64,000 bases of DNA from a virus. Taxonomy: Duplodnaviria; Caudoviricetes. The notes below the pieces were generated by a model, which was not told the DNA's origin, did no database searches, and saw nothing but the letters and a program-made list of their open reading frames with translations. The stretch is taken from positions 14,663-78,662 of IMG/VR virus record IMGVR_UViG_3300033072_001201; one strand, given 5' to 3'. Shown here one piece after another: positions 3,993 through 41,792 of the stretch. The translations under genes were made by a program, and so were the position numbers. Every line of letters starts with the position of its first letter. Position 1 is the stretch's first letter.

Positions 3993-4376
3993 ATGTGTAT
4001 TAATTTAAGAGATAATTATAAAGAACCATATAATCCTAGTAATATTCGTTGGAAATATGCGGAAATTGTTGATGGGAAAATTATTTCTCCTTATAGATCA
4101 TATAAGTATGAAATAAATAAACAATTAAACGCCAAAAAAGATAAAAAATTAGATGTCGGATTTCATGTTTTTGTTTCTAAAAATGCATGTATTCGGGATG
4201 CCCATGCTTATTACGGAAAACTTGATGGAATTGTTTTTCTAAAATGCGAAATGTCAAACTTTCATTGCAGTGGAGAATTTGAAATGGAAAACAGCGAAGT
4301 TTGGAAAAGTATGAAAATTGTTCAAGTACTTTCTGGCGGGAAACGAGATATTACAAAAAAGTTTATAAAATCATGA
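3993..4376 (+). CDS. Hypothetical protein (paralog of 21191-21604)
   Basis: MC start, IRWK..SP..GFHVF..LKC motifs shared. Confidence 0.75.
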   Translation: MCINLRDNYKEPYNPSNIRWKYAEIVDGKIISPYRSYKYEINKQLNAKKDKKLDVGFHVFVSKNACIRDAHAYYGKLDGIVFLKCEMSNFHCSGEFEMENSEVWKSMKIVQVLSGGKRDITKKFIKS

Positions 4377-4603
4377 GTTCTCAACCTAAAAATTATTTGA
4401 TAGGGTGGATTTCAAGCAAAAAAGAAATTAAGTTCGACACTTATGATTTTATGACCCTTCCCGAAGCTATAAAAGCGGCTCAAAAAGTTGTAGTTGAAAA
4501 CGACGAAGAGGAAGAAGATTGGATAGTATTTGAAATTAAGGCGGTTAAAAAATATAAGTTGGTTAAAGATATAAAAGCGGTAGAAATTCCCGTAAAATCA
4601 TGA
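4373..4603 (+). CDS. Hypothetical protein
   Basis: ATG at 4373 (ATGA overlap) preferred over the longer ORF call. Confidence 0.65.
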   Translation: MSSQPKNYLIGWISSKKEIKFDTYDFMTLPEAIKAAQKVVVENDEEEEDWIVFEIKAVKKYKLVKDIKAVEIPVKS

Positions 4604-4866
4604 AACGGTTTAAAATAGTTCATTTTGATGATTATCACGATATTGATTTTTATAAAACCACTTTCAAACATCGTTTTGAACTAGGATGTTTTAGGCCAAA
4701 AACTGGTTATAATTACAACAGATATTATGCTGTATTTTATAATCAAAAACCCACCAAACAACAAATTGTTAATAGTCTAAATCAATTAATTCAAAAAAGA
4801 TATTATAATTTAGTTTGTCAAGAATTACAATCCACTAATTTAGAACTTGATGTTCGATATCCTTAA
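4600..4866 (+). CDS. Hypothetical protein
   Basis: 88 aa, ATGA overlap. Confidence 0.65.
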   Translation: MKRFKIVHFDDYHDIDFYKTTFKHRFELGCFRPKTGYNYNRYYAVFYNQKPTKQQIVNSLNQLIQKRYYNLVCQELQSTNLELDVRYP

Positions 4867-4869
4867 TTT

Positions 4870-5097
4870 ATGTCAAAAGAAACAAAATTCAAATTTATTA
4901 TTCAACACGGTGGTCAAACCGTTGAATTGACCGTAGAAGAAGCCGAAAAACTATATAAGGATCTTTCTAAGATTTTTGACCGCGAAACTAAGATTAAATG
5001 GTATCCTTCCGAGATAATTCCCGAACCAATTCCTTATTCTCCACCCTCTATTCCATCAAGCCCTTGGGATCAAAATACAATAATTTGTACCCTATAA
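4870..5097 (+). CDS. Hypothetical protein
   Basis: 75 aa, Pro-rich C-terminus. Confidence 0.65.
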   Translation: MSKETKFKFIIQHGGQTVELTVEEAEKLYKDLSKIFDRETKIKWYPSEIIPEPIPYSPPSIPSSPWDQNTIICTL

Positions 5098-6763: not shown

Positions 6764-6798
6764 AGTTGGTGAAACGAAAAACCACGCAAAAACTAAAA

Positions 6799-8994
6799 AT
6801 GATCACTTCCCTTACTAAAGATAAAAACAGTGTTGTTATTGATTCCGAACTTGATACCCAATCAACTAGTTTCGGAATTCACGATATGGCTAAGGCTTTC
6901 CACGCCATTACAACCCAAGTATATAAAAATCCCGAATTTAGCGTCATTGCTGAAATTTGTGCAAATGCTTGGGATTCTCATATTTTGGCGAAAAAACAAT
7001 CGACTCCATTTAATATTCATCTTCCCAATAATTTGGAACCTTGGTTTTCGGTAAGGGATTTTGGTATTGGAATGGATCATAATTTCATGCTTGAAAAATA
7101 TACTCAAGCATTTCTTTCGACAAAAGATTCCACTAATCGTCAAAATGGTGCATTTGGAATTGGGCGACTAACCTGTTTGGCGCTTAACGACACTTATTCA
7201 GTAACTTGTTATAAAGATAAGGTTAAACGCATTTATTCTGTTTTTAAGGAAGATTCCTGTCCGAAAATTATTATGTTGTCGGCAGAACCAACGGAAGAAC
7301 AAAATGGCGTGGAAGTATCAGTAAATATTCCTAATCATTTCAGTTATTCGACTTTTAGTGAAAACGCCGCGAAGATTCTATCATTTTACCCCATTAAGAT
7401 GAATATTAGTGGGGCGGCAAATTTTTCCTATCAGCTACCAGAATACGATCTAAGAGTTAATGACAAGGAACTGAACTTTGGATTTCCGAAAGATCGGTCA
7501 AGTTATGCAATTATGGGTGTTTATGCCTACCCTATTGATAATCAATCGCTTGATAATTTGACAGATGCCGAATTCAAAATTTTGAACAAGGGTATTCATA
7601 TTTTTGTCAAACTCGGGGATTGTTCGGTAAGTCTTTCAAGAGATGGTTTGTTTTACGACGGAAAAACGAAAAAGCGAATTAAAGATGAAATTGCCAAAAT
7701 TACAACTCATTATGTTGATTTAGTTAAAAAACAAATTGAAAATGCGCCTAACCTCCTAGCGGCGAAAAAGTTGTATTGGGACAATTTTAGTCATAACGGT
7801 GATTGTTATTATCTAACGCAAACCAAGAATCCAGAAGTTAGTTGGAAGGGCGTTAAGTTTAATGATTTTCATATTGAAATTCCGGCGAATTCTAAGGTAA
7901 AATGTGATAATGTTGAAATAGAAGAAAAACGAACTTGGTTAAACGATACCAAAAAAATTCTAATTAATGACAGAATTGTATTTTTTATCAATGACCTTGA
8001 CAAGAAAGTTGGGATTAAATCTCGCCTAAAACATTATTATAATGATGGCGGGGGTTATGGTAAAAATATTTATTTGTTCGATAATTTGGACAAAGAATTT
8101 CTAGATTATTGTGGTTTGCAACTCTCTGATTTTCAATCCCTTAAAGCTATTGTCCCGCCACCTAGCCAAAAAACTTATAATTACGATAGGTCAAAGTGCA
8201 AAGTATTTATTTATGACGGTTCGGGTTATCGCTCTGATAAGTCGTCTTATTGGAAAATTCCCGAAAATTTTGACGAAACGGATATTGAAGACGCCGATGA
8301 TGCAATTTTCGTAACTTTAGAAGATAGGTTTTATGTCGAAAGTAAATATAATCATAATGCTTTTTGGCTACTATCTAAACTACGCGAATTAAATCCTAAA
8401 CTTCCAAAACTACCGGTTTACGGTATTCGTTATAAATATCCAGAAATTATTGAATCTGCCAAAAAAGTTTGGAAAAAACTTGATGATTATATTTATCAAG
8501 AGTTTGATAATTTGATTAAACAATCAAGCGAGGAAATTAAACAATATGTTTTCGAATCAAATGTTAAAAAGACTAAATTTGATACTGACGGAACTTGTTT
8601 GGATAATCTTTCGCACTTTCAATCTTATAATTCGATGATTCAGGCTTATTTTAGTCTAAGAAATAAGTTGAATGAAAAATTGGAGAGTTCTAAAGTAAAA
8701 CAGATTATTGATTTTGCTGGGAATATTGATTATAAAATTGATAATACTTCGTCTTCCGAATCTAAAATTTGTGATAAAATTATTACTCTCAAATCTTGGA
8801 TTGAAAAACAATATCCGATTTTAGGTGCAGTTAATATTAATACAACTTGGGAATATAATCGCGGTTATGTTATTCAAAGTAGAAAGGTAATTGAGGATTA
8901 TTTGGCCGATTGTGACGCCAAAAACCCGCCTTTTGAGCTTGACCAAGCTGAAATATCTGCTATTCTGGAGGAGAATAAGGTTGAAAAATTATGA
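6799..8994 (+). CDS. rIIA: rIIA-like protein (N-terminal GHKL/Hsp90-type ATPase)
   Basis: EICANAWDSH, RDFGIGM, GAFGIG motifs; followed by an rIIB-like gene. Confidence 0.9.
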   Translation: MITSLTKDKNSVVIDSELDTQSTSFGIHDMAKAFHAITTQVYKNPEFSVIAEICANAWDSHILAKKQSTPFNIHLPNNLEPWFSVRDFGIGMDHNFMLEKYTQAFLSTKDSTNRQNGAFGIGRLTCLALNDTYSVTCYKDKVKRIYSVFKEDSCPKIIMLSAEPTEEQNGVEVSVNIPNHFSYSTFSENAAKILSFYPIKMNISGAANFSYQLPEYDLRVNDKELNFGFPKDRSSYAIMGVYAYPIDNQSLDNLTDAEFKILNKGIHIFVKLGDCSVSLSRDGLFYDGKTKKRIKDEIAKITTHYVDLVKKQIENAPNLLAAKKLYWDNFSHNGDCYYLTQTKNPEVSWKGVKFNDFHIEIPANSKVKCDNVEIEEKRTWLNDTKKILINDRIVFFINDLDKKVGIKSRLKHYYNDGGGYGKNIYLFDNLDKEFLDYCGLQLSDFQSLKAIVPPPSQKTYNYDRSKCKVFIYDGSGYRSDKSSYWKIPENFDETDIEDADDAIFVTLEDRFYVESKYNHNAFWLLSKLRELNPKLPKLPVYGIRYKYPEIIESAKKVWKKLDDYIYQEFDNLIKQSSEEIKQYVFESNVKKTKFDTDGTCLDNLSHFQSYNSMIQAYFSLRNKLNEKLESSKVKQIIDFAGNIDYKIDNTSSSESKICDKIITLKSWIEKQYPILGAVNINTTWEYNRGYVIQSRKVIEDYLADCDAKNPPFELDQAEISAILEENKVEKL

Positions 8995-9486: not shown

Positions 9487-10434
9487 ATGACAACAAAACT
9501 ACCAGTTATCTATAAAAAAGATTCATTTATCACTGTAATTGTAAACAACAAACCTATTACAATTATTAGTTCGGAACCTAATTTCCAAGACGCAGTTTCA
9601 GCTTACCGTCAAAACGATTGGGAAACCTTGGCCGAAGTAGTAAATCGCCCGAAGTTAATTGAAAAATATTCGGATGGTAATATCCGAGTTTTTGACGGAG
9701 TTATTACTTATAAAAACAAACAAGTCCACAATTATGTTGTTGACAAGATTTTTGAACTTTTAAACGACGGGTTTGATATTAATCCAATTGTAAAGTTTCT
9801 TGATAGTCTAATGGCTAATCCTTCCCCAACTATTCAAGAAGAACTTTTTCAATTTTTAGAAGTTAATCAAATGGCCATTACAGAAGATGGTGGATTTTTG
9901 GCATATAAGTTGACCAAAAATGACGGAACTCCCTACTACCAAGGTGGTTCTATGGTTTATAAAGTCGGCGAAACTATGGAAATGAAGCGGGAAGATGTTT
10001 GTAATGATAGGTCGGAATGCGGTGGTCCGGGTTTATATTTCGGCAATAAAGGATATTGGAACAATAGTTTTGATAGCCAAGGTCGATATACTGGTGATGG
10101 TAAAATGTTTATCGTAAAACTAATGCCAGAATGGGTAGTTTCTATTCCAAGTTCTGAGGCGCAAACCAAGGGTCGGGCTTATAAAATGGAAGTGGTGGCA
10201 GAATATGAAAGTGTGAGGGAGACCGTTAATCGAAATTCTGTAGTAAATATTTCTGATGGTATTGAAGACCGAGAATTTGAAGATAGTGAATTTGTAGAAG
10301 GCGATCTTTTTATTCCGAAAACTCCTTCTATTAAACCTTCCATCAAAGCTCTTCGCCGCGCTAAAAATGGTCGATTTGTTAAAAAGAATGCACCAGTTCG
10401 GGATTCAAAAGGTCGATTTCAAAAGAAAAATTAA
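9487..10434 (+). CDS. rIIB: rIIB-like protein
   Basis: FLDSLMANPS..ELFQFL..ITEDGGFLAYK core typical of rIIB; linked to rIIA. Confidence 0.88.
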   Translation: MTTKLPVIYKKDSFITVIVNNKPITIISSEPNFQDAVSAYRQNDWETLAEVVNRPKLIEKYSDGNIRVFDGVITYKNKQVHNYVVDKIFELLNDGFDINPIVKFLDSLMANPSPTIQEELFQFLEVNQMAITEDGGFLAYKLTKNDGTPYYQGGSMVYKVGETMEMKREDVCNDRSECGGPGLYFGNKGYWNNSFDSQGRYTGDGKMFIVKLMPEWVVSIPSSEAQTKGRAYKMEVVAEYESVRETVNRNSVVNISDGIEDREFEDSEFVEGDLFIPKTPSIKPSIKALRRAKNGRFVKKNAPVRDSKGRFQKKN

Positions 10435-11335: not shown

Positions 11336-11983
11336 ATGCCAACAGGATATACATCAATTATTCAAGATTCAAAAGAATCTAATTACGATAAAATTTTTCA
11401 GCAATTCGCACTACAATGCGCTCGGGCCTTTGGGGCTTTAGTTTCGATGCGTGATGATAAATGGGACGCAGAAATTCCAGATGAATTTATAGCCAGCGAT
11501 TATTATAAAAATGGAATTGCACAACATAAAAAGGAATTAGCTATTGCGCGAAAACGCAAAATGTCAGAATGGGACAAATTAGCAGAAAAAGATTATTTGG
11601 AGAAGAAAGATCATTATGGCAAGAAAATTAACGAGTCTTTTGACCGTCGCGCAAAATACCAAACTGTTCTAGATAAAGTTTATGCCTTCGAACCTCCAAC
11701 GCCAGAACACGTTCATTACAAAGAATTTATGATCGAACAAATTAAAAGTTCCATCGATTTTGATTGCAGTTCTGAGTATTATACTAATGAGCTAAAGAAT
11801 CTTAAACGACTTTCAGCCAAGGAATTTAAAGATCAAACGATTGAAACAATTATCAATAGTTTGAAATACGATGAAGAAAATTACGCCAAAGAAATTGAAT
11901 CCGCCAAAAAGCGAACCGCTTGGGTCAAGGCATTGAAGAAAAGTCTTGGAATTAAACCCAACGGGGTAAAAGTTAAGAGTTAA
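11336..11983 (+). CDS. Phage hypothetical protein (MPTGYT...CARAFGA type)
   Basis: 215 aa, helical/coiled-coil; N-terminus recalled from phage hypotheticals, not searched. Confidence 0.8.
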   Translation: MPTGYTSIIQDSKESNYDKIFQQFALQCARAFGALVSMRDDKWDAEIPDEFIASDYYKNGIAQHKKELAIARKRKMSEWDKLAEKDYLEKKDHYGKKINESFDRRAKYQTVLDKVYAFEPPTPEHVHYKEFMIEQIKSSIDFDCSSEYYTNELKNLKRLSAKEFKDQTIETIINSLKYDEENYAKEIESAKKRTAWVKALKKSLGIKPNGVKVKS

Positions 11984-11989
11984 TTAGCC

Positions 11990-12720
11990 AACTACTTTGT
12001 TAAAAATTTTAGAATTAAAATTCCGAGGCGGAGATTTAAGTCTCATTTGCCGATGACGAATTAATTAGGGATTAAAATGTTTGGAAGTTCTGGACCTCGT
12101 TAAACAAAATTCCCCAAACACCTTTTGTTTAAACTCGGTCAAGAACTTCCGCTCATTTTCTTGTAAAACTTTTGACAATTTAGCTCCCCGAATTCGCAAA
12201 GCGAAAAATCTTGTTTTCCGTCAAATTTCTGATAAAGTCAGTATCTGTTGGAAAGATTGGTTTCGTCTTTTAGCCAAGGATATTAGTAGTAAAGAATTCT
12301 CTCGCGCCCCCGAGACAATTCAATTAATATCAGAAATTTGACAATTTTGTTTGCAAACTATCACTTTTAATTTTAAACTTTTAGTTTTTGAATCTTAATC
12401 TTTATGGAGAGCTAATTTTTGGCCTTTGTGCTGGCCGAAATCAAAGCTCATAGCCGAAGATTATAAAATTAGAAATGTCACTTTAAGCAACTCTGGGCAT
12501 TTTAGAAAATCTAAAGTTTAAATTTCTTTTCTACGATTATTATTTTAACTATTGAAAATTTTGAATCTTAATTATTAATTGGAACGATAAGGGAAATCAG
12601 TTTTAAATTTCTAGAGTTTAAAATCAAAATACTTAGAGTCGTATTGCCAAATAATTAAATAATCAGAAACGGACACAGCTACTATCTATCCCGTTTTTAG
12701 AAAATCTTCAATAGAACTTT
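11990..12720 (+). ncRNA. Putative RT-associated structured ncRNA (retron msr/msd-like, unusually long)
   Basis: About 740 nt without a credible ORF directly upstream of a retron-type RT; long hairpin 12083-12150, perfect 15-bp inverted repeat 12220-12234/12328-12342, further hairpins 12409-12449, 12473-12502, 12601-12623, 12665-12697. Confidence 0.6.
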
Positions 12721-12725
12721 TTTTT

Positions 12726-13973
12726 ATGATAAACTCCCTCCCGAATTTTGAAGTCAACCCATCCGATTTTCGCGTTGTTAAAATTCCCAAAAAGCGCAAG
12801 GGGGAATTCCGCGAGATTTGCGTGCCAAGTTTTGAGCTAAAACAATATTTGAGAGAGATTAATTTTGAGTTAAACAAGATTTCATTGGCTTTTGACAAAG
12901 AGGTTAATGGCTTTGTTCCCGGCAAAAATTGTGTCCTTAACGCCAAAGCCCACATTGGTTATAATTTTTCTCTCAATTTTGATCTTAAAGATTTTTTCGA
13001 CACAGTAACTCTAGCGCAAATTTCCGAACAATTTCAAACTCTTTGCGCGAAGGGGTTTATCAACGGAAGGGCTTATCAGGGTTTACCTACAAGTCCGGCA
13101 ATTGCAAATTTAGCATTTATTAAAACGGATAAACTAATCCTAAGTTGGATTGAAAATTATGTCAAAAATGTATTATTTTGCGGAGAATCTGAAAAAGTAG
13201 TATATACCCGTTACGCCGATGACTTGACGTTTAGTTTTAATCATTATGAAACTTATCACCAACTGCGGCAAAAAATCCCTTTAATTGTTGAGTCTCAGGG
13301 TTTTACAATTAATCCTCGCAAAACCCATTTACAGTCTGCAAAATTCGGGCGACGAATGATAACCGGCATCGGAGTTGATAGAAACGGAATATTTATTCCT
13401 CGCGAAATTAAACGGAAGATTAGAAGCGCAAAACACAAACAAAAATATCGGTCGTTGGCCGGATTGCAAGAATGGGCGAAATTAAAAATGCCGAATTCTA
13501 GTCCGTTGGTTAAAAATTCACTTGTTTTCAATAATTTGTCGGAAGTTAATAGAATTAATAATTTGATTGAGAAATCTAATGCGCCGACTCAGAATAATTT
13601 TGGTGTTATAACACAAGTTTTTGTTCCAAAACCAATTAACTACAATTTTATTGGTCCTATCAAAGAATGCAAAGATATTGACTTGAATAAAAAATTAAAT
13701 AGCCGTGCAAAACAAAAACGCCATATTCCAAAAAATTTGACGATCAGCCAAGTTAAACGAAATTTGAAAATTAGGTCAAAATTAGCATATAAAGAAATTT
13801 TAGGCAAACAACCTGTGCAATTTGGGCATGTTAAAAATATTGTTGACGAACAAATTAAGGAACTAAACGCTGAGATTTACCGGAAAAATTCTCCCGAAAA
13901 ATCCTTGACGCAACCAGAGTTTCCGGGTAAGGTAGTGGAAGATCAAAATTTGGCAGAAGAACTATTAAGTTAA
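12726..13973 (+). CDS. Retron-type reverse transcriptase with about 160-aa basic C-terminal extension
   Basis: IPKKRKGEFREI, NAKAH (region X NAxxH), DLKDFF, QGLPTSP, YTRYADDLTFS, GFTINPRKT, ITG (region Y VTG). Confidence 0.93.
   Translation: MINSLPNFEVNPSDFRVVKIPKKRKGEFREICVPSFELKQYLREINFELNKISLAFDKEVNGFVPGKNCVLNAKAHIGYNFSLNFDLKDFFDTVTLAQISEQFQTLCAKGFINGRAYQGLPTSPAIANLAFIKTDKLILSWIENYVKNVLFCGESEKVVYTRYADDLTFSFNHYETYHQLRQKIPLIVESQGFTINPRKTHLQSAKFGRRMITGIGVDRNGIFIPREIKRKIRSAKHKQKYRSLAGLQEWAKLKMPNSSPLVKNSLVFNNLSEVNRINNLIEKSNAPTQNNFGVITQVFVPKPINYNFIGPIKECKDIDLNKKLNSRAKQKRHIPKNLTISQVKRNLKIRSKLAYKEILGKQPVQFGHVKNIVDEQIKELNAEIYRKNSPEKSLTQPEFPGKVVEDQNLAEELLS
13905..13933 (+). promoter_or_regulatory. 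Sigma70-type early promoter embedded in the RT 3' end
   Basis: TTGACG-17 nt-TAAGGT with an A-tract upstream. Confidence 0.65.
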
Positions 13974-13992: not shown

Positions 13993-14304
13993 ATGACTAA
14001 TACTTCAATTATTACTATCAATAATCTTACCGCGAAAAATCGCAAAGTGGTAGATAAAAATTGTGTTTCGACGGATTATTATTTCGGCGACAAGTTTTTA
14101 TTTAACGAAGTATCGTTTTCAACGAAAAATGGAAAATCCGTTGATTATCAATACTTTACAAATTTGCAACTAACTAGACTTGCGGCGAATGAGTTGGCGC
14201 AAAAAATCAATGCGCAAACGTTTAGCAATTACGACGGTCATTCTATTTATTTTAATGACTTTAATAAGGCACTAGAATTTATTAACTCTGAAGATTTTAA
14301 TTGA
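13993..14304 (+). CDS. Hypothetical protein
   Basis: 103 aa directly downstream of the RT. Confidence 0.7.
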   Translation: MTNTSIITINNLTAKNRKVVDKNCVSTDYYFGDKFLFNEVSFSTKNGKSVDYQYFTNLQLTRLAANELAQKINAQTFSNYDGHSIYFNDFNKALEFINSEDFN

Positions 14305-14349: not shown

Positions 14350-14703
14350 ATGAATCAAACTCGCAATCAAAATAATCCTATCGGCAATCAGAAACCCCAT
14401 GCCTTTCTACTTGATTATATTAAGCAAAAATATCGAGTAGTCATCGATATTAACTATGGCAATAGCTGCTGCCCGCTTTATCATCCTATTACAGATAAAC
14501 CTTATATGCAATATTGTGTTGTAACGGCATATAATAATATGGATGATTTAAATGCTGGTCGCGACGCTATTGTTAAAGCAACGAGCTATTGTTCCGAAAA
14601 AGATCAATACGACAAGCACCTCGGCCTAACAATTGCACTACGGCGACTTAATATTAAACTAAAAGACGCGGAGAAAACATCAGGATATTTGTTTAAACAT
14701 TAA
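14350..14703 (+). CDS. Hypothetical protein
   Basis: 117 aa; ATSYCSEKDQYDKHLGLTIALRR resembles a recurrent phage C..D.F.K..G..IAL.R motif. Confidence 0.75.
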   Translation: MNQTRNQNNPIGNQKPHAFLLDYIKQKYRVVIDINYGNSCCPLYHPITDKPYMQYCVVTAYNNMDDLNAGRDAIVKATSYCSEKDQYDKHLGLTIALRRLNIKLKDAEKTSGYLFKH

Positions 14704-22345: not shown

Positions 22346-22549
22346 ATGAAAAATCTAATTGAAGCACTAACTATTTTTTCAAAATATACCAACTCCAACT
22401 ATCCAACAAGTTGCGAGCACGATATTTTATACGTTCAAGTTGACCCGGCAGAAGTTACTTATGATGATAAAACTAAGTTGAACGACTTGGGATTTCATGC
22501 TGATATTGATAATCATAATTTTTATTCTTATACTTTTGGATCTTGTTGA
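22346..22549 (+). CDS. Phage hypothetical protein (CEHD motif)
   Basis: LIEALTIF.KY...PTSCEHD...LGF...FGSC; GAGGG leader. Confidence 0.75.
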   Translation: MKNLIEALTIFSKYTNSNYPTSCEHDILYVQVDPAEVTYDDKTKLNDLGFHADIDNHNFYSYTFGSC

Positions 22550-22559
22550 AAGGAATATT

Positions 22560-22853
22560 ATGCAATTTTATGAAGTAGTTATTTGGACTCCTGATTATCC
22601 CGAAACAATGATTCATATTTGGGAAGACGGATCAATTGGCGATGTTTATCGATATAGAAATAATTGCCTTGCCCAAAATAATTGTCGCAATCCAGAAGAT
22701 TGGCAAAGTGGTTCTAATAGTCTTTTTAGCCATTATATTGGCAAAAACAAAAACCAATTTCGCGCCAGAGCTTTCGCCCAACTAAGACGAGATATTAAAA
22801 ATGGGGAATTAACTAATGACAAATTTGTAAAACTTTTGACAAAGGTTAATTGA
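22560..22853 (+). CDS. Hypothetical protein
   Basis: ATG at 22560 after AAGGA. Confidence 0.65.
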   Translation: MQFYEVVIWTPDYPETMIHIWEDGSIGDVYRYRNNCLAQNNCRNPEDWQSGSNSLFSHYIGKNKNQFRARAFAQLRRDIKNGELTNDKFVKLLTKVN

Positions 22854-23192: not shown

Positions 23193-23413
23193 AAAAATGA
23201 AAAACGATAAAACGGTTTCGGATATTTTTAGTATTGTCGCAATTATTATTCTAATTTATCTTGCGATTGTTTCAATTACAAAAGTAGGATTTTAAAGCCA
23301 CTGACCCACGAATAAATTCGCGTGTCCTCTTTCCGTCATTTTATGCAAAAAGAATTACAAGATAATTGTTATAAACTTATTGATTTTATCAATTAAAATT
23401 CGGGCGAATAATT

Positions 23414-23647
23414 ATGAATCCCAATTATATTACTCTAAATCTTTATCCCCCGCAAAATCCAGAACGTGCCTTAAATTGGGCTTATGGAATTAATGTAGGG
23501 CAGAATACTTTTCTTTTAGGATATATTGAAAATCCAGTTAAGAATCAAAAGTTTTTAATGGGGAAAGTTAAGAAAGCCTATAATTATGTTTTAGCAGGAC
23601 AACCTGCCGACTGGCTAACTAATCCAAAATATAAGAAATTAAGATAA
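23414..23647 (+). CDS. Hypothetical protein
   Basis: 77-aa ORF. Confidence 0.5.
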   Translation: MNPNYITLNLYPPQNPERALNWAYGINVGQNTFLLGYIENPVKNQKFLMGKVKKAYNYVLAGQPADWLTNPKYKKLR

Positions 23648-23670
23648 TTGAAGAAAATTGGTTTTCGGCG

Positions 23671-23698
23671 TTGACTTCCTGCGAAAATCTGATACTGT
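23671..23698 (+). promoter_or_regulatory. Promoter for the tRNA/ncRNA cluster
   Basis: TTGACT-16 nt-TACTGT. Confidence 0.6.
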
Positions 23699-23818
23699 CT
23701 AATTGTTGAAGGCAAGAAACGTTTTCAACAGTTCTTTTTAGAGTTCTTTGGTTTCAATTTTTAGTTAGTGGAGAAAATTGAGTGGGACTAAAAACCCCTA
23801 CCATTAATTAAAAACTTT

Positions 23819-23944
23819 GGCGATATAGTTTAAGGACAAAACAGCTTTTTGATAAAAAGCAGATATTAGAAATTAGTTGTTTAGCATATTAGGATCTGCG
23901 TATTACACTCATGATAGTTAGTTAAAAATTTCTAATTATCGCCA
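23819..23944 (+). ncRNA. tRNA-Ile(GAU)-like RNA with a 55-62 nt insert in the variable/T region
   Basis: Acceptor GGCGATA/TATCGCC+A, D arm GTTT/AAAC, anticodon arm GCTTT-TTGATAA-AAAGC, ATTAG/CTAAT stem enclosing 62 nt; no TTC loop. Confidence 0.65.
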
Positions 23945-23956
23945 ATTTATTTTGCA

Positions 23957-25079: not shown

Positions 25080-25512
25080 CCATCGTTAGCTCAATGGTTA
25101 GAGCAGGCGACTTGAGCAATATGAGCACTACAATATTAAATGAACTAAAATTCATTTAATTAATAAGGGAAACCTTATAGTGAAATGGTGTAAATTCAAT
25201 GAACGGTGTAAAATCCCAACGTTGAGCGAAGCTTTAGATTGAAAAATCTTTAGAACGTGCAGAGACCATAATCACCGATCTAAATTAAAGTATCCCGTAT
25301 AATGAAATACACGCAATGTTGTTAGTTGGCAGTGTTTTACGGAGCGGAAATGTAACAAATACACCGAACTTTAACAAGATCAAGGCATGGCCCAGACCAC
25401 AAACAAATATGTAAACATTAGGTTCATAGCGTGATGGTAAAATATTTGGTAGTGAAAACTATAGTGGTAAGATAATCGCCCGACCTTAGTTCAATTCTAA
25501 GACGATGGACCA
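25080..25512 (+). tRNA. trnI: tRNA-Ile(UAU), exons 25080-25113 and 25472-25512, encoded CCA
   Basis: Spliced cloverleaf: CCATCGT/ACGATGG+ACCA, GCTC/GAGC, GGCGA-CTTATAA-TCGCC, CTTAG-TTCAATT-CTAAG. Confidence 0.85.
25114..25471 (+). mobile_element. Group I intron (358 nt, no ORF) in the tRNA-Ile anticodon
   Basis: U|...G| boundaries; IGS GAGCAC; P3 TGGTG/CACC; P4-like TTCAAT/GTTGAG; P7 GAGACCA/TGGCCC. Confidence 0.85.
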
Positions 25513-25532
25513 ATTTTTTAGTTCTTTTAAAT

Positions 25533-25877
25533 GCCGCTGTGATGGAAGGTATACATCAAAGTCTTAGTTAAACTCCTAATAATCAATAACTTAGGAGAAT
25601 TGAGCACTTAGTTAGAAATAATTAAGTGAATGTCCTTAAAGTCGGGGAAGGCTAAGTCATAGTAATATGATATGTTAATCCCGAACCAAGCATTGAATTG
25701 TATTTATACAATTTGAGGGCGTGTGTAGAGAGCAGACAGGGACAATCTGACCGTCTAATTATATTAGATAGAAGATTATGGGGTGCTCCTCGTGAATAAC
25801 CAGAATCGAAAGATTCATTTCGCGAAAAAAACTTTGGCCCGAAAGGGATTGTGGGGTCGAACCCACCAGCGGCACCA
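25533..25877 (+). tRNA. trnL: tRNA-Leu (probably UAA), intron-split, 5' exon 25533-25565, encoded CCA; atypical T loop
   Basis: GCCGCTG/CAGCGGC+ACCA, AAAGT/ACTTT anticodon stem, long variable arm GGCCCGAAAGGG, T arm GTGGG-GTCGAA-CCCAC. Confidence 0.75.
25566..25824 (+). mobile_element. Group I intron (about 260 nt, no ORF) in the tRNA-Leu anticodon; 3' boundary uncertain (25824-25826)
   Basis: CTT| 5' site, IGS GAGCAC, P2 CACTTAG/TTAAGTG, P3 TGTCC/GGACA, AAAGTCGGGGAA..AATCCCGAACCAAGC, P7 GAGAGCA/TGCTCC. Confidence 0.85.
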
Positions 25878-36417: not shown

Positions 36418-37316
36418 GTATTTAAAAATTTAAGATTCTATATTATAATCCAATATCTGGTATAATTATATTTATTTATAGTCTGAAGAATTTTATCGTT
36501 TAACAGAAAATTGATTGTTGAGTCAACTAGTCAACAAATCAGAGAAACGGCGCAAGGAAACCGCGCAAATCCCTAGTGGGGCGGACAGTTGAGCCGGCCG
36601 GGAAAGGGGGCGGAAGGTGGCAGGAAACGAGCAATTGGGCGACGCGAGAGAGTTTGGGCGCGGAAGTTCTCCGCCAAAAATTGAAAATAAATCGCCAAAA
36701 TACTAATAATTGGTCAATGTTAAAGTATTTTCAAATGAGTTTGCAAATCAATAATGGTTATTTGACCTAATTATTAACTGGTTTGACGAATTAATTTTGG
36801 CGGTGAATTATTTATCGAAAAAATAAATAGAAACTTTATTGTAGATTATAAAGTTTGGTTGGTGATTTATTTTTTGGCGGCATTTTGATTTCGCGGCAGA
36901 GTTATTTTTCGCGGTGGAGTTTGCAAAGGAAATAATGCAGAAAATAAATACGAAAATAAATAGAGAAATTGATTTAATTTACCTATGGAAATAAATAGAA
37001 AAGACGAATTATTTATTGACTGATTTTTCAGTCTAAAAATAAATAAGACAAATAGAAAAATCTGATATAGAAATACTATAAGGAGATACTAGAAAGAATA
37101 GAAATGATGTTTGATTAATTTTTATGTATGATTATAAAATTAGGCTTTTATATTATACTATAATAAATCTCCCTAAAATAAATCCTCCTATCATTTTTTG
37201 TATATCACCTGACATTTTTTGCTAGTCAAATTGAAATTTCTGGTCAAAAATAATTCCTTTATCCTCTTTTTCTATGTTTACTACTAGTATTTTCTTCAAT
37301 CGGCCGGGTGAAAAGT

Positions 37317-37595
37317 TATAATAGAGGCAAATGGCCCTATTAGTAAATTACTCATCTAGGGTAAATTACCTATATGCTATTTAATTTTTCGCATTTATTT
37401 TTAATTAGCCTCCTAACTATATTTGCATAAAAGTGTTTTTTGACTATAGCTTGGATTCAAATTTTTCCGGGTTTAATACAAAAAATCACCATTTTTAGCC
37501 AAAATAAATAGTTTGACGAATTATTTTATTTGTAGGGTAAAATACCTATATGCAAACATTAAATTTCCGTCCTATAATAGAGGCTTTCGGCCCTA
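37317..37595. repeat. Two repeated motifs arranged A-B...B-A in a long non-coding region
   Basis: A = TATAATAGAGGC-N4-GGCCCTA (37317, 37573); B = TAGGGTAAA(T/A)TACCTATATGC (37357, 37533). Confidence 0.75.
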
Positions 37596-37873
37596 GTGAT
37601 TTGCAAACACAAATGAAAAACGGCAATTATTTTATCTACCACTAATTATTTTTTGCTTTCAACTAATTATTTTTTGTTATTTTGGCTATTTAATTTTGCA
37701 AACCAATTTTTTGTCTAATTATTAATTTGGCCTATAATTATTTTACAAAAAGTTCCTCGCAGAAAAAAATTGTCTAATCTCTTTTTCTGTGCTACCTTTA
37801 GACAGTTGGGCGATTTCTGCTCAAAAGTTTTATTTTTACCCTAATATAAAACAATAAAACCTTTATTTTAACT

Positions 37874-38026
37874 ATGAAAACTTATGTTTTTAAAGTTATT
37901 TATGGCGATGATTATTTTATTGAGGAAGTCATCGCGGATTGTATTCAATCGGCCGAAAAAGAAATAGAAGCTCTTTATATGTATTTTGGCAAAAATTATT
38001 ATTATCGTTTGATCAAAACGAAGTAA
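37874..38026 (+). CDS. Small hypothetical protein (50 aa, not in ORF track)
   Basis: ATG after a promoter-like TTGTCT..TGCTACCTT. Confidence 0.55.
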   Translation: MKTYVFKVIYGDDYFIEEVIADCIQSAEKEIEALYMYFGKNYYYRLIKTK

Positions 38027-40894: not shown

Positions 40895-41792
40895 GAATGA
40901 CACGTAGGTAATGGATCAATACGGACGTATGGAGAAAGTAGATATGTAACCATAAAACCAATATGCAATTTGTATTTATAGGGTGAATATGGATGTAGTT
41001 ATAGGGTGTATACCCCTTTTACGAATTTTTTACAATTGGGTCGGCGGGGTTGCGGCGTGCATGGCCCTCCTCCACGCAACATCAATATTAAAATTAAATA
41101 ACATTTTTTATTATACTTTTTCTGAATGATTCTTTGTATTATTGGTATATCAAACTCATACCCATACCCCTTTTAAAAAATCCTAAAAATCTTTATAGAA
41201 AAATTCATAAAATTATTTAATAAAAATGGGGAATATCTTCTTATGTAAGATACAAACAACATTTATTTTAGAAAAGTTTTATTATTTATTCTAAAGAATC
41301 TTTTATTCCTTCTTTGTATCCTAATTATCTATCCCGATATCAAACCCAAATCTAAGAACATTTTTTATTCTTCTCCTTGTAGAATAATCTACCTATTCTT
41401 TATCTCTCTCTTACTATTTTAATACTATCCTTTGAAGGGGCATAGGGGTATTATTTATTGGAAAACTAATTTTTTATCAAAATAATTACTTCAAAAAAAT
41501 AAAAATTTTTGAACTAAAAATTTAATTCAATTTCGTCTTTAATATTTTTAATAATATAAAGAGCCATTATAATAAAGAATAATACCATAAATAAAAAGAT
41601 TTGTTTACTTACTCTCTCTATCCTAATCTTCTTTCGCCGAAACTCAAGCGCAAAATTGATTGGCGATTTATTTCGGCGGGAAACTCCTCGCCCGGCCGAA
41701 TGTCATTTTCTGAAAATCTGGACGCGCCAAAATTCCGAAATAATTACTTAAAATTAAAAAATTTTCGGAAGAGATTTTTACAAAACCATTTT

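Follow-up and report, generated by a model that had tools for sequence, protein, structure and literature searches.

The 742-nt leader of a phage-borne reverse transcriptase (RT) gene is, on our structural and comparative analyses, one conserved plus-strand RNA region of four tandem modules (A to D) with the predicted general msr-msd architecture of retron non-coding RNAs (ncRNAs). That these modules constitute a natural array of retron-type ncRNAs served by one RT is a reading to which we give an even chance. The window, the whole stretch of DNA analyzed here (64,000 nt), is part of an IMG/VR virus record of 78.6 kb that is estimated to be 62% complete, lacks end repeats and is AT-rich, with a genome GC content of about 33%. 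A sequence-only reading of the window had proposed a multi-unit ncRNA array in the leader, giving several templates to one RT; overall, its observation was partly confirmed and its interpretation partly supported. The leader and the RT gene are located as follows:

11984-12725, plus strand: non-coding leader (742 nt), from the stop of the upstream gene (11983) to the RT start codon
12726-13973, plus strand: retron-type RT (415 aa; Pfam RVT_1) with a basic C-terminal extension of about 155 aa

The RT is classified as retron-type by PADLOC, NCBIfam, comparison with the PDB and its sequence motifs. PADLOC retron RT models matched it at about 1e-40 to 1e-28 (8e-40 to 4e-28), with types II-A, III-A and XIII tied at 132-135 bits and no single type standing out, and the NCBIfam retron St85 model gave 137.9 bits, below its cut-off of 235. 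Neither a cut-off nor a clear best match was reached for any typed retron family (I-XIII, NCBIfam St85/Ec67). The group II model scored 55 bits (vs 300) and Drt2 22 bits, and the best solved relative was the Ec86 RT (PDB, 8e-23). Retron RTs are defined by NAxxH in region X and VTG in region Y, together with the YxDD catalytic box (Mestre et al. 2020, PMC7736814). The RT of the window carries NAKAH at residues 72-76, YADD at 163-166 and ITG at 212-214, and H76, G214 and the YADD box are invariant among 13 close and 25 wider homologs.

The close homologs of this RT (P0002-P0013), at 48-88% identity, are all metagenomic, and the next tier, at about 37-46% identity, lies on viral contigs. No relative above 35% identity was found in bacterial species genomes, and the viral-contig scans yielded none closer than 46%. 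The C-terminal 155 aa had an AlphaFold pLDDT of 62.9 and matched the protein atlas at sub-threshold levels only. The second-tier RTs (P0015-P0089; about 430 aa) possess a conserved C-terminal domain without a Pfam match, whose motifs include SNFTTxWxSCMxHP and YDRxYG and which is unlike the basic extension that ends the window's RT.

Homologs of rIIA (6766-8994; PHROG 612, 1e-85) and rIIB (9487-10434; PHROG 609, 6e-46) lie upstream, separated from the RT by a few genes, and the record also encodes a large terminase and a tail fibre. Judged by the rII homologs, the RT cassette sits among small ORFs, in a part of this large virulent-type phage that resembles an early-gene region. Shine-Dalgarno (SD)-like sequences at most 20 nt from the start were present in 8 of the 118 ORFs of the window and the 14.6 kb upstream, and A/T runs precede the starts, which together suggest that the host does not depend on SD pairing. 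The three neighbours of the RT (11336-11983, 13993-14304 and 14350-14703) had no PADLOC, Pfam or NCBIfam match, and searches of the RT and these neighbours with the same resources recognized neither an effector gene nor an effector domain fused to the RT. The gap between the RT and the next ORF is 19 nt. Across the whole window, ARAGORN detected no tRNA and no Rfam family was found.

No ORF starting with ATG and no credible gene was detected in the leader. Its longest frame (12081-12341; 86 codons) begins with TTG and contains no Met codon, and it had no Pfam match and neither a homolog nor an entry of its own among called proteins. An Rfam scan of the leader (E up to 1) returned no family, no msr and no group II intron RNA. 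No match was obtained by blastn against phage GenBank or in a search by an exact two-motif pattern. A promoter scan of the leader found none on the plus strand, and the TTGACA in the TTTGACAAT motifs lacks a -10 box at 16-18 nt.

Retron ncRNAs adjoin the RT gene on the same strand, and their 5' and 3' ends (a1/a2) are complementary. [quoted passage not shown] Ends complementary in the a1/a2 manner were found in four same-strand modules next to the RT of the window. These modules were obtained without reference to any motif, by a search for the best chain of non-overlapping helices, each enclosing 90-200 nt (span limits set after the data were seen), which returned exactly four tandem units with a score of 105, compared with 57.9±14.8 in shuffles (maximum 95 among 300; four units, P=0.01-0.03). 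The helices in this chain were 11997-12014/12161-12178 for module A, 12220-12234/12328-12342 for B, 12372-12392/12502-12522 for C and 12549-12562/12701-12714 for D. Module B had the highest helix score; scored one by one, the helices that close A, C and D did no better than those common in AT-rich shuffles. When folded alone, every module closes by its own helix and forms two hairpin arms around a three-way junction. The predicted features are as follows:

11997-12179, plus strand: module A, closing helix 11997-12014 / 12161-12179 with bulged G12012
12019-12073, plus strand: short arm of module A, with an inner hairpin at 12027-12051
12074-12159, plus strand: long arm of module A, an imperfect hairpin of about 30 bp
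12171-12181 and 12337-12347, plus strand: copies of TTTGACAATTT, at the 3' edge of the closing helix of A and B, respectively
12180-12219, plus strand: spacer between A and B, a small hairpin (12193-12205) and then a T-rich run, a weak terminator-like site
12220-12342, plus strand: module B, perfect 15-bp closing helix 12220-12234 / 12328-12342 (inverted repeat I6)
12240-12284 and 12294-12321, plus strand: two medium hairpins inside module B, with a joiner AAGUC with G12237
12372-12522, plus strand: module C, closing helix 12373-12381 and 12384-12389 / 12505-12510 and 12513-12521
12396-12463 and 12472-12503, plus strand: composite hairpin and short hairpin inside module C, with G12390 in UUUUGAAUCUUAAU and the 3' junction UUUUAGAAAAUCU at 12500
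12549-12714, plus strand: module D, closing helix 12549-12556 and 12558-12562 / 12701-12705 and 12707-12714 (inverted repeat I11)
12568-12656 and 12665-12698, plus strand: composite hairpin and short hairpin inside module D, with G12563 in UUUUGAAUCUUAAU and the 3' junction UUUUAGAAAAUCU at 12695

The spacers between the modules measure 40, 29 and 26 nt, and 11 nt separate the end of module D from the ATG of the RT. Relative to shuffles, the plus-strand folds reached z values of -4.7 (A), -5.5 (B), -2.9 (C) and -2.1 (D), and those of the minus strand were weaker (-3.6, -4.9, -1.7 and -1.6, respectively). The minimum free energy of module A was -50.3, compared with -32.1±3.9 in shuffles, with support for its closing helix and hairpins that includes inverted repeat I1; that of module B was -36.4, compared with -19.3±3.1. 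Module A, about 550 nt from the RT, has a short hairpin and then a long one, which is the canonical order of msr followed by a long msd. This order occurs in A only, whereas C and D have the reverse, with the long composite hairpin first and a short 8-bp hairpin last.

The sequence-only reading had described the leader as a possible array of hairpin modules of about 165-195 nt separated by a degenerate motif. All seven strings on which it relied are present, namely TTTTAGAATT at 12007, TTTTGACAATT at 12170, TTTGACAATT at 12337, TTTTAGAAAAT at 12500 and 12695, and TTTTGAATCTTAAT at 12386 and 12559, and the hairpin domains it named for each interval were recovered by folding. The five motifs it grouped as one family are in fact three different things: the one at 12007 lies within the 5' arm of the module A closing helix, those at 12170 and 12337 form the 3' edges of two closing helices (A and B, respectively), and those at 12500 and 12695 make up the 3' junctions of C and D, the paralogous pair. 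A regular expression fitted post hoc to all five gave 5 occurrences against 0.26 expected, but it merges different words. The leader is modular, as had been proposed, with four tandem helix-closed domains in place of homologous repeats split by a single motif.

Comparison with shuffled, AT-matched controls, the check that had been put forward for the array, gave a divided answer. Exact direct repeats in the leader exceeded those in dinucleotide shuffles of 11984-12725, both at lengths of at least 10 nt (13 vs 2.6; P=0.003) and of at least 12 nt (5 vs 0.28; P=0.005). The periodicity was no better than in shuffles, a result that the original caveat about chance had foreseen: the best offset for shared 6-mers was 168-171 nt, an equally high maximum arose in 34% of shuffles (P=0.34), and per-base identity stayed at chance level at every offset. 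Degenerate copies of both C/D junction motifs likewise occurred at chance level across the window, and no k-mer was common to all four modules beyond chance, save a borderline 10-mer with two mismatches (P=0.04).

These null results bear on a very improbable reading, in which the leader is an artefact of AT-rich composition or is partly coding in the frame 12081-12341. It finds support in the non-significant periodicity and the chance-level motif copies, and in the fact that about 90 codons remain open in DNA of 31% GC, where a replacement of 7 nt by 40 nt in one relative also preserves the reading frame and leaves it open. However, the folding of the modules, the paralogy of C and D, the covariation of their helices and the distribution of variants all exceed controls. 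The frame itself, with its TTG start, no Met codon and no Pfam match or homolog, extends over two of the most stable RNA domains of the leader.

By their alignment, modules C and D are true paralogs that arose by tandem duplication: the semi-global alignment had a z of 6.9, which was reached by 0 of 500 shuffles. Both carry the 14-mer UUUUGAAUCUUAAU, in which the G (12390 and 12563) sits immediately past the 5' arm of the closing helix. Three more elements are common to the two: a AAAUCAAA block that follows the apical hairpin, a joiner rich in A and, at the 3' junction, UUUUAGAAAAUCU. Beyond these motifs the sequences of the two closing helices differ, yet 10 (C) and 8 (D) contiguous pairs are still formed, with motif-anchored pairing P values of about 0.001 and 0.007, respectively, and the short 3' hairpin shows an exchange of U-A for C-G between the two. 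The closing helices of C and D covary between the paralogs. A MAFFT alignment of the C and D units was not structure-consistent, with 8 shared pairs.

Modules A and B gave no significant alignment with C, with D or with each other, so the four modules are not one array of homologous units. A and B share TTTGACAATTT in the same placement, at the 3' edge of the closing helix, where UUUGAC pairs with GUUAAA or GUCAAA; the 11-mer repeat by itself is not beyond chance. The 5' junction of A resembles that of C and D in 12 of 15 positions, a weak likeness, as copies of the 14-mer with three mismatches occur once per 2.4 kb. In A and B, the candidate Gs (12012 and 12237, respectively) lie in sequence contexts that are not shared.

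Sequences of the leader also recur elsewhere in the record. An exact 18-nt copy of 12161-12178, the 3' arm of the module A closing helix, lies at 22825-22842 within the 3' end of an ORF (22497-22853), with a BLAST E value of 7e-4 within the 78.6-kb record; chance is possible for such a match in AT-rich DNA. A 1.17-kb repeat-rich non-coding region at 36771-37938 contains many iterons of the AAAATAAATAGA type, two copies each of TAGGGTAAA(T/A)TACCTATATGC and of TATAATAGAGGC...GGCCCTA, and three copies of TTTGACGAATTA(A/T)TT, the last of which recurs in module A (12054-12066). It could serve as an origin or in regulation. Other gaps without coding sequence, 300-630 nt long, are found at 25156-25782, 41130-41600 and 23193-23946.

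To compare the leader among relatives, we aligned Logan contigs (four public runs; three other studies; wastewater and freshwater) to positions 11800-13000. Relatives from the three other studies contain all four modules, colinear and in the same order. Two other studies provided contigs whose similarity to the window starts precisely at 11987, after the same unrelated 30 nt. Given this shared start next to a common foreign flank, the leader and RT form one mobile cassette, with position 11987 as its left boundary, 10 nt before module A. In one relative, 12186-12192 in the A-B spacer is swapped for 40 other bases. A metagenome locus with 95% identity (L004) is without the RT 5' end and the leader, the only such locus among the matches listed.

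The leader is under purifying selection. Divergence in pieces lying wholly within it was 4.9%, compared with 10.3% in the 5' coding part of the RT (Fisher P=3e-5), and was 3.5% over 11987-12185, the module A stretch. Among the variants listed (40 of 110 substitutions and 12 of 33 indels, unphased), 6 of 26 leader changes fell on paired bases, against 54% expected (binomial P=0.001), and in 4 of 5 listed substitutions at paired bases the pair was kept by an A-U/G·U exchange. Since such an exchange is neutral only for the plus-strand RNA, this pattern supports a plus-strand RNA. The changes that keep a pair include 12019 A>G and 12030 G>A in module A and 12276 A>G in module B, and the listed indels are located in spacers, hairpin loops and bulges. 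Parts of A, of C/D and of the RT were present in a metatranscriptome run, where DNA carry-over is possible. Another RNA run (X3) had no cover over 12184-12492 and was not counted as evidence.

In the array reading, the modules would be transcribed together with the RT gene, and the RT would bind a module and prime from the 2'-OH of the G adjoining its 5' arm. Modules C and D would provide G12390 and G12563, respectively, as the putative branch residues, and G12012 (A) and G12237 (B) may have the same part. The enzyme would then copy the 3' hairpin arm into a short branched single-stranded DNA (ssDNA), so that a single RT could produce at least two distinct msDNAs; the reverse transcription of any module is what we infer here. 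Several observations count against an array. A and B are unlike C and D in sequence, so one RT would have to recognize four unlike RNAs. The hairpin order of C and D is reversed, and the canonical module is the one about 550 nt from the RT. The lack of an Rfam msr match and of an effector counts in the same direction.

An alternative that we consider unlikely, though it merits attention, is that a single module works as an msr-msd, either D beside the RT or the canonical A, and that the others are duplicated or degenerate copies or an accessory RNA regulating RT translation, transcript stability or RNP assembly. To our knowledge, the natural retrons described always have one ncRNA per RT, and full-text literature searches turned up neither a natural array of retron ncRNAs nor a comparable phage-borne retron. 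The lack of homology between A or B and C/D, the position of D against the start codon and the weak terminator-like site after A would fit such a single unit as well. However, A and B are the two most strongly structured modules (z of -4.7 and -5.5). They are also at least as conserved in relatives as C and D, which argues that they are not decaying copies, and all four modules remain colinear in relatives from several studies.

It is less probable still that the modules are structured RNAs of the phage that never undergo reverse transcription (small RNAs, decoys that bind proteins or a long 5' UTR with a regulatory function, for example), so that their adjacency to the RT would reflect cassette linkage only. 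In favour of this stand the missing Rfam or retron msr match, the generic nature of an a1/a2 helix plus a G, and the presence of other long repeat-rich non-coding regions such as 36771-37938, one of which shares a motif of 12-13 nt with module A. Yet the leader and RT travel together as a conserved block that starts at 11987 and has different sequence upstream of it. An ncRNA next to the gene is a requirement of retron RTs, and with 19 nt to the next ORF there is no other candidate nearby. In C and D, moreover, the a1/a2 helix is joined to a conserved G junction, which also argues against RNAs that never serve as templates.

Multi-module leaders seem to recur in this phage RT clade, which supports the array reading indirectly. 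A phage RT with 43% identity to that of the window (L041, on the same contig as L050) has a leader of about 1 kb at 4003-4991, with a minimum free energy of -362 kcal/mol and several perfect hairpins of 17-24 bp. Three module copies in it contain CTAGGTAG, GGCTGAA and a TGTTTCG hairpin (z of 5.1 between units 1 and 2 and of 4.4 between units 1 and 3). On these sequence repeats, the L041 leader is a possible second multi-unit leader. The L048 and L005 RTs have single leaders of about 200-250 nt with a GTGTTTCGCC hairpin as in L041; similarity between the L005 and L041 leaders beyond this hairpin was not significant. Closing helices clearly analogous to those of the window were not found in a search of the leaders of L041, L005 and L007. 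The L041/L050, L048 and L005 RTs belong to the same clade on viral contigs as the RT of the window, and the L041 leader is likewise structured and multi-module. It nevertheless represents a different sequence family (CTAGGTAG...GGCTGAA...TGTTTCG), the leaders of L048 and L005 consist of a single unit, and the L041, L048 and L005 RTs have a conserved C-terminal domain different from that of the window's RT.

Retrons are bacterial anti-phage systems in which one ncRNA per RT is accompanied by a toxic effector. Because no effector gene was recognized and the background is that of a virulent-type, rII-bearing phage, the inferred role of the cassette is less likely to be abortive infection of the classical kind than counter-defence or competition between phages by means of ssDNA decoys. 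We propose, as a tentative extension of the array reading, that this is a natural "multitron" of a virulent phage. During infection, an effector-less RT and four distinct ncRNA modules would produce several different msDNAs, which would act as decoys or sponges to counter the defences of the host or rival phages, and ncRNA copy number would be evolvable within a phage-specific retron clade. If this were true, an effector-less phage retron with an ncRNA array would invert the usual picture of retrons and suggest that phages use ssDNA production as a weapon or for regulation. The function of msDNA in a virus would also become open to direct study.

Among known systems in which an RT gene is flanked by a non-coding RNA on which the RT acts, diversity-generating retroelements and group II introns resemble the cassette in this arrangement. 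Both were considered and rejected as identifications. No template/variable repeat pair was found in the 78.6-kb record, where BLAST matches of the leader were at most 18 nt. For a group II intron, there was no RNA match in Rfam (E up to 1), the RT scored 55 bits against 300, and only 19 nt follow the RT.

Bacterial retrons (Retron-Eco1/Ec86 and the St85 family) are alike in having an RT with NAxxH, xTG and YADD and an ncRNA region directly upstream on the same strand. Their terminal inverted repeats, the G after the 5' arm and the internal hairpins also have counterparts in the modules of the window. They differ in consisting of one unit of about 150-250 nt, whereas the window contains four tandem modules in 742 nt, and in being accompanied by an effector within a bacterial or prophage defence island, whereas the cassette has no recognizable effector and is carried by a virulent-type phage. 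In contrast to bacterial retrons, the window's RT falls below the cut-off of every typed family and has a C-terminal extension, and the hairpins of C and D are reversed.

The closest parallel to several modules served by one enzyme is artificial. In engineered multitrons, tandem ncRNA/msd units on one transcript are used by a single retron RT to produce several RT-DNAs, and no natural counterpart is mentioned in that work (10.1101/2023.07.17.549397). If the array reading is correct, the multi-template use of a retron RT, so far engineered for multiplex genome editing, would already exist in nature, and the four natural modules with their RT would offer an immediately testable scaffold for multiplex editing tools. 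The engineered arrays are synthetic repeats of one scaffold with different donors, whereas those of the window are natural, diverged modules, two of them unrelated in sequence to the others.
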